From a virus (Duplodnaviria > Caudoviricetes), in the IMG/VR virus record IMGVR_UViG_3300009095_000014, positions 1-64,000 of that record: 64,000 nt of DNA; one strand, 5' to 3'. A program made the translations under genes and the position numbers. Under the pieces are notes generated by a model that saw only the letters and a program-made list of their open reading frames with translations, was not told the DNA's origin and did not search any database. The first letter of the stretch is position 1. Each line of letters starts with the position of its first letter. Of the stretch, positions 53,273 to 60,266 are shown piece by piece.

Positions 53273-53306
53273 GCATACGGAGGAGGGGTACCCCTCCTCC
53301 GTATGC
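53273..53306. repeat. Perfect 34-bp palindrome, CATA...TATG family, immediately upstream of terminase
   Basis: gcatacggaggaggggtacccctcctccgtatgc is self-complementary; TATG at 53302. Confidence 0.9.
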
Positions 53307-53320
53307 TAAGTGAGCGTTGT

Positions 53321-55558
53321 ATGATTTTGTTTGAAAAGGATTGGGCACGGTTTCCGCGTGCCATTGCTGACTTCAAAACCAGCAACCAGAGTTTCATCGA
53401 TCTGGTGATGTTGTATCGGCACATGGGCGTCAAGAACTGCCTGTTTCCTTTGGCGTTGATGCAACCGGAGCTACAAGGGGTGGACCCCCATGATCCAAAC
53501 TTGGATGAGGTGACCCAAACCCGCATCAAGATTGAATGCAAATTCAACCCGTGGTACTACCTGCGTGAAGTGGTACGCGTACCGCCGGTCTCGGGTGACA
53601 CACCGGTGCAGCTGCGGGCTAACCGCGCCAACATCTCCCTGTGGTGGTGCTTCCTCAACCACATCGACTATTTCCTCGTCCAGATCCGTCAGACGGGTAA
53701 GTCGCTGAACACTGACGTACTGCACAACTGGTACCAAATTTTCGGAACGGAAAACACCCGTGCCAACCTCTTCACCAAAGACGCTGACCTTATTAAAGAA
53801 AACATCGCGCGTCTGAAGAAGATCCGTAAGCTGCTGCCGCCCTATCTGGTTAACATCGTCCGTTCGGACACCGACAACCAGAAAGAGTTCACCAACTACG
53901 GTCAAGGCAACCGTTTGGTGGCTGTACAGGCTCAAGCCAACGAAGACGCGGCACTGAACATCGGTCGTGGATTGACCGCTGCCATGAACCATATCGACGA
54001 AGTGGCATTCCTGCGCTTTGTTCAGATCTCCGTGCCGGCGATGCTGGCAGGTTCGGGTGCAGCGCGTGAAGAAGCGGCTCGTAACGGCTTGCCCTACGGT
54101 AACATCTTCACGTCAACGGCCGGTAAGCTTGACAGTGAAGAAGGTTCCTTTGCCTACAAGCTGCTCAGTGATTCGATGGTCTGGGACGAATGCGTACTGG
54201 ACTGCGAAGATCAGAAGGCCCTGTACAAGGTGGTCAGTGCACGTTGCAAGACAGACTCCTTGATGGTCAACGGGACCTTCAGCCACCGTCAGCTGGGCTT
54301 TACGGATGAATGGCTCCGCAAGCGCATCGCCGATTCTAAGCAGTCCGGTGACGATGCCCGTCGCGACTTCTTGAACGAATGGACGGCCGGTAGTCTTTCT
54401 AACCCGCTGCCCACCTCGGTGCTGGAAACCATTCGCAAGCATGTAATCGACGCACCGTACAGTCAGGTGTTCAGTAGTCTTGGCTACATCATCCGCTGGT
54501 ATGTGCCCAAGGAAGAAGTCGAGAACAAGTTGAGTGGTCGACAGCTGGTCATGGGGGTCGATACCTCCAACGCCACGGGTCGAGACAGTATCACTGGGGT
54601 GATCACTGACGTCAGTACACTGGAAACCGTCGGGGTTTGGTCGATCAATGAAACCAACCTGCAACTGTTCTCGGGTTGGCTGGCGCGTTTGATCGCTAAT
54701 TTCAAGGGGCTGACAGTTGTACCGGAAAACAAGTCAACTTGGATTGCCATCTTGGACTACTTGCTGATTCACTTGCCCACCGTGGGCATTGATCCGGGAC
54801 GGCGGATCTACAGTCAGTTCATCGACCACATCAACGACGGTGACCGAGAAAAGCTGGAGTACAAAGAGTACCTGCGCAATCCCATGTCACCTAACCACTA
54901 CAACCGCTGGCGCCGGTACTTCGGGTTCCCCACCAACGGACCGCTACGTGAACTGCTCTATGGCAGCGTGATTCAAGAAGCGGGTAAGTTGGCAGGTGCG
55001 ATGGTACGAGACAAGGACTTGGCCGCTGAGATCTCGGGACTGGTGGTGAAGAACGGTCGGATTGACCACCGCAATGGTTTCCATGACGACCATGTCATCT
55101 CGTGGCTGTTGACGCACTGGTTCCTGACCTACGCCAAGAACTTGGAACACTACGGGATCGACAAGACCTTGGTCAAACGCAAGCTGCGCGAAATGGCGGT
55201 GGAGACCACCGACTGGCGAGCGGCACGGGAAGCAGAACTGCAAAAACAACTCCGGAATGAGTTGGAAGAAGTCTTGGATAAGATCAAGGTCGCACGAGAC
55301 GAATACCAGATCATGCGACTGGAACACCGACTGAACTCCATCTACGCCCGCTTGGATGTGGGTGGCTTGGGTATGGACGCCGGCAGCATCGACGCCCTGA
55401 TTGAAGAAGCCCGTGATCGCCGTGCGATCGGTAACCGGCAGAAACAACAAGGCGCGCGACAAACCGCTGAACCGGAACGCTATGCGTCGATCAACGGAAC
55501 CGGACGCTTTGGGGGACGGGGCGGATACCAACCGTCCTCTTCGGTGGTGATGTGCTGA
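53321..55558 (+). CDS. terL: Terminase large subunit (phiKZ gp25-like)
   Basis: CKFNPWYYLRE, Walker A RQTGKS, Walker B HIDEVAF, nuclease GVDTS and HDDHVISWLL; start re-called at ATG 53321 (MILFEKDW). Confidence 0.92.
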   Translation: MILFEKDWARFPRAIADFKTSNQSFIDLVMLYRHMGVKNCLFPLALMQPELQGVDPHDPNLDEVTQTRIKIECKFNPWYYLREVVRVPPVSGDTPVQLRANRANISLWWCFLNHIDYFLVQIRQTGKSLNTDVLHNWYQIFGTENTRANLFTKDADLIKENIARLKKIRKLLPPYLVNIVRSDTDNQKEFTNYGQGNRLVAVQAQANEDAALNIGRGLTAAMNHIDEVAFLRFVQISVPAMLAGSGAAREEAARNGLPYGNIFTSTAGKLDSEEGSFAYKLLSDSMVWDECVLDCEDQKALYKVVSARCKTDSLMVNGTFSHRQLGFTDEWLRKRIADSKQSGDDARRDFLNEWTAGSLSNPLPTSVLETIRKHVIDAPYSQVFSSLGYIIRWYVPKEEVENKLSGRQLVMGVDTSNATGRDSITGVITDVSTLETVGVWSINETNLQLFSGWLARLIANFKGLTVVPENKSTWIAILDYLLIHLPTVGIDPGRRIYSQFIDHINDGDREKLEYKEYLRNPMSPNHYNRWRRYFGFPTNGPLRELLYGSVIQEAGKLAGAMVRDKDLAAEISGLVVKNGRIDHRNGFHDDHVISWLLTHWFLTYAKNLEHYGIDKTLVKRKLREMAVETTDWRAAREAELQKQLRNELEEVLDKIKVARDEYQIMRLEHRLNSIYARLDVGGLGMDAGSIDALIEEARDRRAIGNRQKQQGARQTAEPERYASINGTGRFGGRGGYQPSSSVVMC

Positions 55559-55600
55559 CGGCATACAGGGGAGGGCACGAAGCCCTCCCCTGTATGCCGT
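55558..55600. terminator. CATA...TATG family hairpin, 19-bp perfect stem
   Basis: acggcatacaggggagggc ACGAA gccctcccctgtatgccgt. Confidence 0.85.
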
Positions 55601-55620
55601 CTAGGATTAGATCCCAATTC

Positions 55621-55910: not shown

Positions 55911-55944
55911 GCCCCGCACGTCCTAGGAGGACACAGCATGAACA
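55911..55944 (+). promoter_or_regulatory. Conserved translation-initiation leader shared with 61721-61738
   Basis: Identical 18-mer CACGTCCTAGGAGGACAC at 55917-55934 and 61721-61738, both followed by 3 nt + ATGAACA. Confidence 0.8.
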
Positions 55945-56300
55945 AGATCGCCAACCTGACCCAGCACAATGCTACTGAAGAGCAAGTGGCAGCGGGCGTA
56001 TTCGACCTCGTCGGCGAGGATCGAAAGATGTTGGTGAAGCTTCTCACCTTCGCCACCCTCCCCACCAAGGAGGAAATCGAAGAGCGCGCCAAAGCCATCG
56101 CCATGTTGGTGATGGGATGCCGCGCCGCCATGATCGGCGGCGCCCCGTACCTCATGCCCGCTCTCGAGCGTGCACTGAAGGAAGAGGGGGTTATGCCCCT
56201 CTACGCGTTCTCGGAACGCGTGTCGGTCGAGGAACTGTTGGCAGATGGCAGTATACGGAAAATCAACGTGTTCAAACATGTGGGATGGGTCGAGGCGTAA
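55938..56300 (+). CDS. Csx20/Csx15-like small Rossmann-fold protein, candidate cyclic-oligoadenylate ring nuclease or binder
   Basis: NLTQHNATEEQ, AMIGG, and PLYAFSERVSVEE...DGSIRKINVFKHVGW match by eye the Csx20 pattern (FSHxLTxEQ; LIQG; PVYATTxRxSxE...GxxxKxSxFKHVxF). Confidence 0.62.
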   Translation: MNKIANLTQHNATEEQVAAGVFDLVGEDRKMLVKLLTFATLPTKEEIEERAKAIAMLVMGCRAAMIGGAPYLMPALERALKEEGVMPLYAFSERVSVEELLADGSIRKINVFKHVGWVEA

Positions 56301-56861: not shown

Positions 56862-58118
56862 TTACCTCGAATAGAAATTCATGGAGAAGGTACGCAGGAC
56901 GATGTACAGGCAAAGGCCCGTACGCACGGCAGCGATCACGGCATCGTTCTTGGATTTCACGCACCGACGAACGATCTTCTCGGACAGGGTACGCATTCCA
57001 AGCACCAGCGGATCAGACGACCTAGAGGCCATATACAGCGAACGCAACTTGGCGATCACGGCACCAACGTCAAGGTTACTGCCCATCAACGACCGGTTGG
57101 CGGCGATGGTGTCAAACGCATGGGTCAGTACATCGTCGACCAAGGTTTCAATCTCCTTGTCGCCGCGCGGACCGTAGTTGACCGAAGTGTAGTCCAACGC
57201 GTCACGAAGCAGCTTCTCCGGCATGACTGGCATGGCGTTGGAAACGATCTTCACCAACTCTTCGCGGATGTAGGAGGGCTTATCGCTGATGACGGTGTGG
57301 ATGTAACGACGGTACGTCTGAAACTGTCGCTGCTTATCACGGGCACTGGTCACCCCGTCGAACGTCACCATGGAACTGGTGGAACGGATCGATGCCTTGG
57401 GGTTCAGGCGGATGGTCTCGAACACATCACGGATGTTGTTGATGATGCTCTTGATCCTACCCTGGATGTCGTTGCACATGTAGACGATCTTGAAGTCATC
57501 GTCAAAATGCGTGATCGTCTTGTAATGGATGCTGTTCTTGGCCAGGATGTCCTTGGTACGGGCATCCAGAAGGGCACCCCATGAACCGTAGACCTTCAGG
57601 CCGTACTTCTTGGTCAGCGCGGCGTAGGTGGCCACGGCGACCGCTTCGTCAGCCGGATGACGGAAATAGAAGGCCAGAATGCTGGTGATGAACTTGTACT
57701 GCATCATCAGGATGGTGTCATGCATCCCAGCTTCTTTTTCACTGGCACTCAAGTGAGGGCTGCTGTAGATGGCATGGGTCAGCCACAGGAACGACATGTT
57801 CATGATGTCACCGGAAACCTTACGCACTTCCTTTCCGGCCGCTCGGTCTTCCGGCGGATACACGGCATCGACGGTGTGCAGGTCTTCTTCCAGAGCAGCC
57901 TCGTCAGCAATGAGGATATCGTCGAACCACCGGTTGCGATCCTCGGGACGGAACCGAACCGGGTGAACCCCCATGAGGTTACCGCCGAAGAAGGCGATGT
58001 GGTCTTCGTTCTTATTGGCGAAGTTCTGGGTGTACTGGCTCAACCGCCGGATAAACGCACGGTCGATCTTCAGGTCGGCACAGCCTTTGGCAAAGACCTG
58101 TTTAACGGAGGGAGACAT
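56862..58118 (-). CDS. Conserved phiKZ-like protein (probable virion component)
   Basis: 418 aa, GAGG RBS; FFGGNLMGVHPVRF, YAALTKKYGLK, DIQGRIK motifs typical of Chimalliviridae core genes. Confidence 0.7.
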   Translation of the reverse strand: MSPSVKQVFAKGCADLKIDRAFIRRLSQYTQNFANKNEDHIAFFGGNLMGVHPVRFRPEDRNRWFDDILIADEAALEEDLHTVDAVYPPEDRAAGKEVRKVSGDIMNMSFLWLTHAIYSSPHLSASEKEAGMHDTILMMQYKFITSILAFYFRHPADEAVAVATYAALTKKYGLKVYGSWGALLDARTKDILAKNSIHYKTITHFDDDFKIVYMCNDIQGRIKSIINNIRDVFETIRLNPKASIRSTSSMVTFDGVTSARDKQRQFQTYRRYIHTVISDKPSYIREELVKIVSNAMPVMPEKLLRDALDYTSVNYGPRGDKEIETLVDDVLTHAFDTIAANRSLMGSNLDVGAVIAKLRSLYMASRSSDPLVLGMRTLSEKIVRRCVKSKNDAVIAAVRTGLCLYIVLRTFSMNFYSR

Positions 58119-58192: not shown

Positions 58193-58657
58193 GTGAGTTA
58201 TCAATCGAAATTCGGATCGCTCTTTGGTGGCGCTGCCAGTCATCTGGAAAGCAAGGGCGAAGGTCCCGTGATTGGCGTCTACATCCCTGAAGGCGCTACG
58301 GTGAGCCACATCCCCAGTGTGGAAGGTTACACGGTGGTTGGTCGCGATTGGTGTGGAACGGCTTCTATGGAAGCCCGTGAGGCCATCCTGCACCATGTAC
58401 GCAAGATGATCGAAAAGGAAGAAGAGGAAGAACGCGAAGAAGAAGATTTCTACGACGACTATTCGCTCTTTGCTATCGTTCCGGAAATCGATCCGTACAT
58501 GATCGACTCGCTGGGTGAGCTGCCCCGTCAAACCGGTGCATGGTTGACCGACAGTGTGGAGAACTACTCCGGCGAAGTACTGGAGAGGGTGCGTCAATCC
58601 TTCGACGTGGATCGGATCTTCCTCAGTTACGAGGAATTCCAAGAAAGCCTGCGTTAA
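58193..58657 (+). CDS. Acidic hypothetical protein
   Basis: 154 aa from GTG (GGAG RBS); EKEEEEEREEEDFYDD tract; an ASME motif. Confidence 0.68.
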   Translation: MSYQSKFGSLFGGAASHLESKGEGPVIGVYIPEGATVSHIPSVEGYTVVGRDWCGTASMEAREAILHHVRKMIEKEEEEEREEEDFYDDYSLFAIVPEIDPYMIDSLGELPRQTGAWLTDSVENYSGEVLERVRQSFDVDRIFLSYEEFQESLR

Positions 58658-58699: not shown

Positions 58700-59614
58700 T
58701 CACTTCACCAAGGCGGTGGTCACACGATACAGGGCGTCTTCCACGTAACGGTCCATCAGGGTTTGACGGAGAGGGACGTTACGCTCGAAGAGTACCTTGA
58801 GGACTTCGGCGTAACGCTTGACGTCGTAGTCGAACGTCTTGGCCAGTTCACCGGTCAGACCCAGGGATTCTGCCTTCGGGATACTACGATCGAACGCATC
58901 GGCGATGATCTCGCGGACCTGGAGTTCTTCCGGGGGCAGTTGCACTTGGTCAGTAAAGGTGAAGGTGTCCAGTTCTTCCAGTTGGACCTGTTCCTCGACC
59001 TTGACCGACGGGGCGAACGATTGGTTCATTTCGGCGCGGTCATCACTGACATCCAGCGTCAACATACCGGTCGGACCACGCAGCACCAGAATGCCCGTGT
59101 GCGGGTCGTAGGTGGCACCCAGACGGATACCGGTGGGAGCGGGAGCGGGAGTGGGGTTCAGGTCCCACGACCGGCAATTGTGGTTGAGCTTCTCGTAGCT
59201 CTCGAAGAGCTTGTCGAAGTCGGGTTCAGGAATGGAGGCATCCACCCCGGCCAGGAACTTCACCGGGTCGGCGAGGTACTCCATTGCGGCCATGAACTTG
59301 GTATCGGGGTTGGCGGATGCCCGCAGGGACAGCTGCTCGTACTGATGTCGGCGATCGTACTTGCTGTAGGCCAGTAGGTCACCGACTTTGCGGTACAGGT
59401 CCTTGATGGCTTCTTCTTCACCGATCTTCGAGTTGTACTTGGCGGGGTTGACCGCACCCGATTGACCCACGGTGACGTAGCCGTTGACCAGATGGCCCAC
59501 GGCCAAGGTAGTCGTGGTCAGTTCAATGAACTGGATGTCGATGGACTTGATGGTATCCTTGATCTGGTCAAGGGTGATGTCATGTAGGTTGAAATGGGGG
59601 AATTGTGCTTTCAT
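58700..59614 (-). CDS. Phage Gp49/Sf6-gp66 (PF13876-like, Acb4-like) domain fused to an unknown ~200-aa C-terminal region
   Basis: Start ATG 59614 (AGGA RBS). ITLDQIKDTI...TTLAVGHLVNGYVTVGQSGAVNPAKYNSKIGEEEAIKDLYRKVGDLLAY fits the family pattern T.CVL.L.NGF.V.G.S.CV.P.NFD..IG...A.....K...L.GY; PTPAPAP linker. Confidence 0.7.
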   Translation of the reverse strand: MKAQFPHFNLHDITLDQIKDTIKSIDIQFIELTTTTLAVGHLVNGYVTVGQSGAVNPAKYNSKIGEEEAIKDLYRKVGDLLAYSKYDRRHQYEQLSLRASANPDTKFMAAMEYLADPVKFLAGVDASIPEPDFDKLFESYEKLNHNCRSWDLNPTPAPAPTGIRLGATYDPHTGILVLRGPTGMLTLDVSDDRAEMNQSFAPSVKVEEQVQLEELDTFTFTDQVQLPPEELQVREIIADAFDRSIPKAESLGLTGELAKTFDYDVKRYAEVLKVLFERNVPLRQTLMDRYVEDALYRVTTALVK

Positions 59615-59863
59615 GGTAATGCTTCCTGTGTAGGGCTGATGTGATAATCTCATCTGATCCTGACATGGAATTTTCTTTTACGGGAAGGTCTGTTATTTTA
59701 TGTCTTCACCACTTCGGTTTTTGGGAAGGGGGGAGACATTTTGATTGCGAGGAACGAGTAATCAAAATGGCGGGGGATGGGTAAGATAATAGCTCTATCT
59801 TCGGCGGAATCTGGAATGGAACGGTAGTGGAATGTAAGATGACAGAGAAGATAGATTCCTACT

Positions 59864-59898
59864 GTAGGCGCGAAGCGCCTACTTTATGCCGTCTTTTT
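59864..59898 (+). terminator. Orphan hairpin followed by TTTATGCCG and T tract
   Basis: gtaggcgc GAA gcgcctac + tttatgccgtctttttt; no upstream + strand gene. Confidence 0.5.
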
Positions 59899-60002
59899 TA
59901 CGCATCATTTAATCTCACCTTACTGTAAAAAAATACAACATTAAAGAAATACAAACACAGTGAGTGATATGAATCGAGCTATATCGCAAGGGGGTTACAG
60001 AC

Positions 60003-60125
60003 GTGGGTGAGTTAGAGCGAGAGAACGATGATGAATGGATCGGAGAGATCATCTGGTCACTGGTAGGGCTACTGGTGCTGTTTGTAGGGACGGGGATGTT
60101 TACGCTCAATGCTTTTCTGAGGTAG
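60003..60125 (+). CDS. Membrane microprotein, 40 aa
   Basis: GTG start after GGGGG; MGELERENDDEWIGEIIWSLVGLLVLFVGTGMFTLNAFLR. Confidence 0.55.
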   Translation: MGELERENDDEWIGEIIWSLVGLLVLFVGTGMFTLNAFLR

Positions 60126-60128
60126 TAT

Positions 60129-60266
60129 ATGAAGCGATGGTGGAACTCCATGTCCCCTAGCGAACGGTTGGCCACTACGACTCTGATCGTGCTGGCTACC
60201 GGTGCAATCGTGCAGATCGTCATGGTTTTCTGCATGTTCTACAACCACTTTCAAGGTGCGCAGTAA
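60129..60266 (+). CDS. Membrane microprotein, 45 aa
   Basis: GAGG RBS; MKRWWNSMSPSERLATTTLIVLATGAIVQIVMVFCMFYNHFQGAQ. Confidence 0.65.
   Translation: MKRWWNSMSPSERLATTTLIVLATGAIVQIVMVFCMFYNHFQGAQ

Follow-up and report, generated by a model that had tools for sequence, protein, structure and literature searches.

What does a nucleotide sponge domain of the Acb4 family gain from being the first third of a 304-aa phage protein, and is it still a sponge when so many residues around its ligand pocket differ from those of its relatives? The gene that raises these questions was found in a window of 64,000 nucleotides (the whole stretch of DNA that was analysed, positions 1 to 64,000 of IMG/VR virus record IMGVR_UViG_3300009095_000014), and the viral record itself comprises 84,580 bases with a completeness estimate of 30%. 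An initial annotation, made from the letters of the DNA alone, had described the gene as a Gp49/Sf6 gp66-type domain fused to an unrecognised region with a PTPAPAP linker, and had proposed that the product was either a tethered or bifunctional nucleotide sponge or a sensor through which host alarm signals would act on a phage effector. We followed up these proposals by profile searches, structure prediction and comparison with the genomes of related phages. The features on which the argument rests are collected in Table 1.

Table 1. Coordinates, in the window, of the 304-aa gene, its parts and its neighbours
Feature	Position	Strand	Description and basis
Whole CDS	58700..59614	-	304 aa + stop, P0001; from ORF list and translation
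Shine-Dalgarno AGGAAG	59622..59627	-	7 nt 5' of ATG at 59614; read from sequence
Acb4-family (PF13876) domain, residues 10-100	59315..59587	-	Predicted helix, three strands, long helix; Pfam and AF2
Helical extension, residues 103-148	59171..59308	-	Predicted AF2 helices 103-114, 117-121, 133-148; pLDDT 51-81
Pro-rich linker, residues 151-165	59120..59164	-	PTPAPAP at 154-160; pLDDT <50 for 147-165
Three-stranded beta meander, residues 166-188, YDPHTGILVLRG motif	59051..59119	-	Predicted AF2 strands 166-170, 175-180, 183-188; pLDDT 57-73
Acidic predicted-disordered segment, residues 191-227	58934..59044	-	pLDDT <50 for 193-226
C-terminal three-helix region, residues 228-304	58703..58933	-	Predicted AF2 helices 228-250, 256-277, 284-303; pLDDT 55-66
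Large terminase	53303-55558		
418-aa gene, phrog_2921	56862-58118	-	Core gene neighbouring the 304-aa ORF
154-aa acidic orphan protein	58193-58657	+	Convergent with the 304-aa gene
Intergenic spacer, 535 bp, divergent	59615..60149	.	Upstream of the 304-aa gene; from gene calls on both sides

The N-terminal part of the protein belongs where the initial annotation had placed it. Pfam PF13876 (Phage_gp49_66) matches residues 13-83 with 39.4 bits (E 9.1e-10; gathering cut-off 27) over profile positions 1-76 of 82, a six-frame search of the record with the same model gives 42.4 bits at 59366-59578, and PHROGs 322, 3934 and 9467 match the same stretch. The literature bears out the statement that Acb4 belongs to the Gp49/Sf6 gp66 family: the anti-CBASS sponges of the Acb4 family are those that Pfam groups as PF13876, and SPO1 Acb4 is the founding member (10.1101/2024.12.30.630793). 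SPO1 Acb4, a tetramer of 96-aa subunits, acts as a sponge that takes up 3'3'-cGAMP and related CBASS signals, and all 8 of the 8 diverse Acb4 homologues that were tested bound 3'3'-cGAMP (10.1101/2024.12.30.630793). A direct phmmer search with the 304-aa protein against PDB sequences gave no match, and the structure of SPO1 Acb4 (PDB 9E4W) was reached by the family profile alone, with an E-value of 1.6e-22 for a profile of 120 aligned sequences that had the 304-aa protein as its first row.

AlphaFold2 (AF2) provided with this family alignment models residues 10-100 at pLDDT 88-98; run on the single sequence, with no alignment, it yields a pLDDT of 36 and an unusable fold. When the alignment-based model of the domain was compared with known structures by Foldseek, a check that the initial annotation had itself suggested, 9E4W came out closest, its chains taking all of the top ten places (E 2.5e-4, target-normalised TM 0.66-0.76). 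VIA, a search independent of Foldseek, also ranked 9E4W first (Z 10.0, rmsd 3.5, 81 residues aligned), followed at Z 6-7 by double-stranded-RNA-binding domains and ribosome hibernation factors, a likeness of Acb4 that has been reported before (10.1101/2024.12.30.630793). Among viral models the comparison ranks members of the Acb4 family highest, those of the jumbo phages Noxifer, PaBG and phiRSL1 among them, and stand-alone Acb4 homologues are found in the phiKZ-like Noxifer as well as in other jumbo phages.

Four copies of residues 1-100 were also modelled as a homotetramer, in three runs and alongside three controls. The tetramer reached an ipSAE of 0.88 (runs 0.85-0.89) versus 0.00 for the best of the 3 controls, with at least 77% of contacts shared among runs and a partner pLDDT of at least 81; in the calibration of the complex tool, the mark was reached by 20 of 30 solved pairs and by 1 of 23 single chains. 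The predicted contacts join strand residues 30-53 with 30-53 and the loop at 42-46 with residues 80-91, and these match the two interfaces of SPO1 Acb4, its beta-sandwich dimer and its "joint". Because the 9E4W complex has already been solved, the tetramer model is to be read as likeness to a known assembly only, and its pass may reflect memory of the solved structure rather than proof that this copy assembles in the same way. Taken by sequence, fold and predicted assembly together, the N-terminal domain is a real, divergent Acb4-family member.

How divergent it is becomes apparent at the ligand pocket. T36, N44, G50 and S52 are invariant across the 120-sequence alignment, the 304-aa protein included, and L42, G45, P57, N61, I64, G65, A69, K76, L80 and Y83 are further conserved residues that it retains. 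Against this background at least 16 positions, each at least 90% conserved among 118 homologues (a biased set, mostly from one main Gram-negative clade), are altered: R12D, L35T, C38A, F46Y, T47V, V48T, T49V, E51Q, A53G, C54A, A55V, S56N, E58A, N59K, I68E, A73L, W78G, G82A and L85K. At most of them the variant residue is found in 0-4 of the 118 homologues, with E58A and W78G rare. Six of the changes fall within the ligand loop of residues 53-59 (A53G, C54A, A55V, S56N, E58A and N59K), and the two near-invariant family cysteines, C38 and C54, are both alanine. The family motif S-A-C-A reads S-G-A-V at residues 52-55 and K-I-W-x-L reads K-V-G-D-L at residues 76-80, such that the two deviations singled out in the initial annotation, GAV and GDL, are real and belong to a wider set of replacements. 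Its suggestion of an altered ligand specificity is a fair one given this number of changed near-invariant positions.

MAFFT aligns SPO1 Acb4, which is about 21-22% identical to the domain, without a gap across the pocket and allows the contacts to be compared one by one. On the adenine side, F62/N63/I66 of SPO1 Acb4 correspond to Y60/N61/I64, preserving an aromatic-Asn-x-x-Ile pattern, V56 aligns to A54, and the stacking aromatic F48 is kept as Y46. The guanine-edge contacts K36 and E49, by contrast, have changed to T34 and V47, and the phosphate contacts Y57, T70 and K81 to V55, E68 and D79. SPO1 Acb4, although a proven sponge, scores just 34.9 bits against the PF13876 model, and its ligand contacts likewise vary among other homologues that are able to bind. 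Because conserved positions have changed, the six in the ligand loop among them, the ligand of the 304-aa protein is uncertain; judged by these replacements, its ligand preference has probably been altered and has possibly been lost.

A second point of reference within the same family is the gp49-type Acb4 of N4 and Bas69, which sets off the PanDA guard system when it sequesters 3'3'-c-di-AMP (10.64898/2026.08.10.743972). The loop consensus of the N4 type, S-A-C-A-S-P-E-N-F-N, stands against S-G-A-V-N-P-A-K-Y-N in the 304-aa protein, and on this comparison neither the N4-type ligand profile nor exposure to PanDA-like guards can be assumed for it. That the sequestration of c-di-AMP sets off a guard of this kind would offer a plausible selective reason for the remodelling of the pocket.

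If nucleotide binding had instead been lost completely, the Acb4 domain could persist as a tetramerisation scaffold, with the orphan tail displayed four-fold to bind or block a host or phage partner. Such an outcome would be in keeping with the replacement of at least 16 near-invariant positions, six of them in ligand loop 53-59, with the reversal of charge at two of the phosphate-contact positions of SPO1 Acb4, and with subunit interfaces that are still confidently predicted. But it would be a less obvious outcome for a domain that has kept Y60, N61 and I64 of the adenine pocket and the invariant T36, N44, G50 and S52, plus G65, and SPO1 Acb4 is equally distant from the Pfam model, yet binds cGAMP, as did every one of the eight diverse homologues in the published survey (10.1101/2024.12.30.630793). 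We consider loss of binding of this kind unlikely, and a divergent sponge remains the reading that we prefer for the N-terminal domain.

The tail presents a different problem. As far as sequence searches reach, residues 96-304 are an orphan, without detectable relative. An exhaustive phmmer search with the tail against 1.84 billion representatives returned only the protein's own cluster (P0002) and four repetitive proteins, which owe their E-values to the summing of repeats, and a word-index search returned only P0002, that is, its own cluster. Nothing was found by tblastn of the tail against 50,697 phage genomes at E<=10 or by a pattern scan of IMG/VR, PADLOC and NCBIfam gave nothing significant, and a search of the ESM Atlas gave no usable match. 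PHROGs assigned the tail to no family, the best E-value being 0.029 for the C-terminal three-helix region, and Pfam at E<=10 had no match, PF21825 included, for residues 89-155, 159-304 or 226-304. The initial annotation had already called this part of the protein unrecognised, and that description holds for residues 96-304, in which the proline-rich linker lies where the motif that it had named is found.

Several identities were considered for the tail and set aside. The best tblastn match, in Achromobacter phage Axy22, reaches query residue 121; MAFFT lays residues 96-150 on the Sequestin domains of Axy22 gp073 and ort11 gp088, the closest phage matches, and the BLAST alignments run into the Sequestin part. 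A Sequestin-like domain at residues 96-150 was nevertheless rejected, since a profile of 14 Sequestin domains scores at or below 0 bits throughout with filters off and PF21825 has no match there, nor elsewhere in the 84.6-kb record. The order of helices, three strands and helices in the tail is similar to that of the Acb4 domain, but a second, degenerate Acb4 copy was rejected at the level of sequence: the family HMM, with filters off, scores the N-terminus at 49.4 bits but leaves the tail without a score, and self-BLAST gives an E-value of 4.9. A Tad2 identity was likewise rejected, with no PF11195 in the protein, where PF13876 is the only match at E<=1, nor anywhere in the 84.6-kb record. 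Comparison of the C-terminal helices with the PDB returned unrelated generic helical bundles, and their Z of 6-9 does not rise above the noise stated for such bundles.

One similarity of the tail may deserve to be recorded as a lead. A profile built from the repeats, about 145 aa long, of giant adhesin-like proteins assigns residues 121-184 a score of 24.5 bits, compared with at most 4.3 bits for 500 shuffles, and the segment and the repeats share a motif, YDPxTGxLxLxG. Because these repeats were chosen from 1.84 billion proteins for the very fact that they matched, this is a post-hoc and weak lead.

In composition and predicted structure, the tail is acidic and loosely organised. Over its roughly 210 residues it has a net charge of -13 and a pI of 4.6, with a net charge of -4 in residues 101-150 and of -7 in residues 191-227, where the pI is 4.05 and two QVQL..EEL motifs occur. 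The AF2 model is of low confidence, with pLDDT mostly 27-66 and disordered linkers between short elements, and the same secondary-structure elements are predicted from the single sequence as from the alignment. Searches of the tail revealed no domain of an effector or an enzyme and none related to defence, and its model amounts to three short elements of low confidence with disordered linkers between them; the idea of a sensor that links host alarm signals to a phage effector finds no support in these results. The other proposal of the initial annotation, a tethered or bifunctional sponge, is possible.

Whether the tail is genuine coding sequence can be judged from its codon usage. A log-odds score, for which 28 long ORFs from this 84.6-kb record served as the training set, lies at 0.39-0.84 bits per codon in each 50-codon window of the 304-aa ORF, compared with 0.45 +/- 0.22 for core genes of the genome and at most 0.31 for the five other frames across the ORF, and the N- and C-terminal parts have GC3 values of 0.73 and 0.74. 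Because the score is positive throughout and in the frame of the ORF alone, this is a single continuous gene, and it is neither a frameshifted pair nor a chance ORF. Public gene calls for the ORF use either of two starts, ATG 59614 or ATG 59653; the latter, an in-frame ATG at 59651-59653, adds 13 residues and has only AGGA, 4 nt upstream. The identical 304-aa protein occurs in a Logan assembly and in an ENA listing, both probably from the same soil sample, and P0002, a 267-aa fragment from another catalogue that is 99% identical, covers the junction of the Acb4 domain and the tail and retains the frame over 159 tail residues with only 2 changes. Sequencing runs that carry the 58700-59614 stretch comprise one soil DNA run, probably the source, and a manure run with a share of 0.06, and no RNA sequencing runs carrying it are listed. 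As matters stand the 304-aa protein has turned up in only one soil sample, which limits the generality of any statement about it.

These observations bear on a simpler account of the fusion, in which the protein is an ordinary Acb4 sponge and its tail a lineage-specific, largely disordered and functionless appendage, acquired for instance by recent capture of downstream sequence. A tail with no homologue among the 1.84 billion representatives or the 50,697 phage genomes, with two segments predicted to be disordered and the others of low confidence, and with a strongly acidic composition is much what such an account would lead one to expect. Recent capture of non-coding DNA is disfavoured, however, because the codon usage of the tail, in both the log-odds score and GC3, equals or beats that of the core genes, and a functionless appendage would not readily explain why P0002 has kept its frame through the tail with so few changes or why the same secondary structure is predicted with and without an alignment. 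We regard this account as improbable. That two separate genes were united only by a fault of assembly or a frameshift, an idea for which no support was found and which was considered solely since the tail is an orphan, is scarcely credible, given that one frame is coding throughout without a switch, that the identical product recurs in further assemblies, albeit probably of the same sample, and that a 99% variant spans the junction.

The genome that carries this gene is that of a phiKZ-like jumbo phage from soil. The neighbouring phrog_2921 gene is matched over its full length by relatives in 290 phage records, all of them phiKZ-like jumbo phages, with hosts that include Pseudomonas, Burkholderia, Xanthomonas, Ralstonia and Erwinia among others, and its best relative is in Pseudomonas phage pPa_SNUABM_DT01 (49% identity). 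The 304-aa gene itself sits within a variable run of orphan genes, with the terminase on one side and, on the other, DUF7484 and a gene for a PhuZ-like tubulin (TubZ_C_2). Because the two nearest sequenced relatives, DT01 and FLC9, have other small genes at the equivalent position and no PF13876 gene anywhere in either genome, this is a variable, accessory part of the genome; FLC9 gp22, which occupies the equivalent position, was considered as a syntenic counterpart and rejected as unrelated. The convergent 154-aa ORF on the plus strand has a codon score of 0.47 versus 0.04 for the minus-strand ORF that it overlaps, a run of tiny hydrophobic ORFs diverges from the 304-aa gene beyond the spacer, and the 304-aa gene appears to be monocistronic. 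The promoter-like motif of the record, of the TACATTGT type, is absent upstream on the gene's strand, where the PWM score is -20 (720 positions of the record score at or above this value), and a sigma-70 scan of the upstream region found nothing relevant. A scan of the same region for recurrent k-mers was uninformative.

Taking the domain, the tail and the genome together, we think it somewhat better than an even bet that the protein is a divergent Acb4-family nucleotide sponge of a phiKZ-like soil jumbo phage, to which an orphan tail is attached. If so, residues of about 10-100 would adopt the predicted Acb4 fold and assemble into a four-subunit pinwheel like that of SPO1 Acb4, held together by a strand-to-strand dimer and by the "joint", in which the beta2-beta3 loop would rest against the end of the long helix. 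Pockets at the subunit interfaces would then sequester, in the cytoplasm, a cyclic-dinucleotide alarm signal of a CBASS-type defence, and with its signal withheld the CBASS effector would stay off. The preferred ligand probably differs from that of SPO1 or N4 Acb4, because the guanine-side and phosphate contacts and most of the near-invariant ligand loop have been replaced. Around the pinwheel the acidic tail of 210 residues would be presented four times, and its most likely role, to judge from the Acb4-Tad2 and Acb4-Sequestin fusions already published, would be that of a second binding module aimed at a further defence signal or protein. We read the tail as a candidate accessory or anti-defence module.

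A bolder version of this reading can be formulated, for the tail, for the pocket or for both. The orphan tail, either as a whole (about residues 101-304) or by way of its three-helix end, might be a previously unseen anti-defence module that binds a signal or a defence protein, one that comes to light, as Sequestin did, through its fusion to a known sponge, and the remodelled pocket might bind an immune nucleotide other than cGAMP or c-di-AMP. We hold this to be a genuine possibility, one that falls well short of probable.

Nucleus-forming phiKZ-like phages are shielded from DNA-targeting defences and are still exposed to defences that signal through the cytoplasm. Acb4 is the largest known anti-CBASS family, and domains fused to it have already yielded Sequestin. 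If either the tail or the altered pocket were active, the known repertoire of signal interception would become wider, and the protein would show how sponges might diversify under guard systems that sense them. If the pocket binds another nucleotide, the phage could avoid guards such as PanDA that sense the sequestration of c-di-AMP. If neither is active, the protein would be one more Acb4 homologue with a lineage-specific appendage.

How unusual this architecture is can be judged from the Acb4 proteins already described. SPO1 Acb4 is a stand-alone protein, to whose 96 aa the 304-aa protein adds 210 further residues. The initial annotation had taken members of the family to be usually stand-alone, which is correct, although fused forms are common too and have been published: extensions were noted in several Acb4 homologues (10.1101/2024.12.30.630793), and both Acb4-Tad2 fusions and 91 Acb4-Sequestin (PF21825) fusions have been described (10.1101/2025.07.12.664507). 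It was its fusion to a known sponge that served as the route to the discovery of Sequestin (10.1101/2025.07.12.664507). Among the more than 7,600 family matches there are also Acb4-RyR proteins, tandem Acb4 proteins and several proteins, 180-260 aa long, whose extensions carry no annotation.

The two published fusion types differ in what they share with the 304-aa protein. Acb4-Sequestin proteins, represented by Axy22 gp073, Sinorhizobium phage ort11 gp088 and Pseudomonas phage YH6 (10.1101/2025.07.12.664507), likewise begin with an N-terminal Acb4 domain that is followed by a helical region of similar length, but the 304-aa protein runs on for another 150 residues and the Sequestin profile is negative across it. 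Acb4-Tad2 proteins, as in Pasteurella phage Pm86 (10.1101/2025.07.12.664507) and in P0122, likewise combine a sponge and a second module in one polypeptide, but they contain PF11195, which the 304-aa protein lacks. An architecture of "Acb4 plus something" is thus already known, and what the 304-aa protein adds to it is an orphan partner, the degree to which its pocket has diverged and, perhaps, the type of phage that carries it.

Transcription from the plus strand, running antisense across the gene for the Acb4-family fusion protein, is hinted at by a perfect 8-bp hairpin oriented antisense to the upstream region of that gene, together with the recurrence elsewhere of the word TATGCCGT and of ACGGCATA, its complement, for instance in a hairpin right behind the stop of the large terminase gene (55557-55601). 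With the TTTATGCCGTCTTTTTT that follows it, the upstream hairpin reads, from its sequence, as a putative intrinsic terminator on the plus strand.

A bipartite motif of about 50 nt (GATyCyA, 14 nt, TACATTGT, 4 nt, GTG) fits a putative promoter. When the 84.6-kb record was scanned with a position weight matrix, the four strong sites scored 63-72 bits, these being the very sites on which the matrix was trained, and the next two scored 24 and 18 bits. Beyond these six sites, no position in the record exceeded the listing threshold of 8 bits, and the scan did not find the motif upstream of the Acb4-family gene.

Features discussed here, with their positions and strands
Feature	Position	Strand	Description
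Tail residues 121-184	59063-59254	-	Weakly similar, in collinear order, to the repeat units of very large bacterial adhesin-like proteins (DUF4347/Calx-beta)
120-aa protein	55938-56300	+	Public gene call with precomputed PF27247 (MJ1673) match
154-aa orphan ORF	58193-58657	+	Includes a stretch of consecutive Glu; converges with the Acb4-family gene
Perfect 8-bp hairpin	59864-59903	+	Stem GTAGGCGC, loop GAA, stem GCGCCTAC, then TTTATGCCGTCTTTTTT
Bipartite motif, strong sites	41841, 43772, 55631, 61662	+	Matrix scan
Bipartite motif, weak sites	42248, 60426	+	Matrix scan

Plus is the coding strand of the 154-aa orphan, which scores 0.47 bits per codon versus 0.04 for the overlapping minus-strand ORF; its stop and that of the Acb4-family gene lie 42 bp apart, and no family was found for it in Pfam, PHROGs or NCBIfam. 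The MJ1673 match of the 120-aa protein is precomputed; our own search returned no Pfam match at E<=0.01.

Within the orphan tail of the Acb4-family protein, residues 121-184 are 39% alike over 64 residues to P0004, an adhesin-like repeat protein; what they share with such repeats is a D-x-D-like start and YDPxTGxLxLxG. This similarity may be due to chance.

Three other Acb4 fusion proteins have in common a module of about 90 aa with the pattern RGW..P..EN...GY...SW.P..F, for which there was no Pfam family at E<=1. In the Rhizobium-phage-like P0018 and P0080 it lies between the Acb4 and Sequestin domains (residues ~96-186), and in P0099 it is N-terminal to Acb4 (residues ~1-85). If fusion to a known sponge is a guide, as it was in the discovery of Sequestin, this module would be another candidate sponge module.
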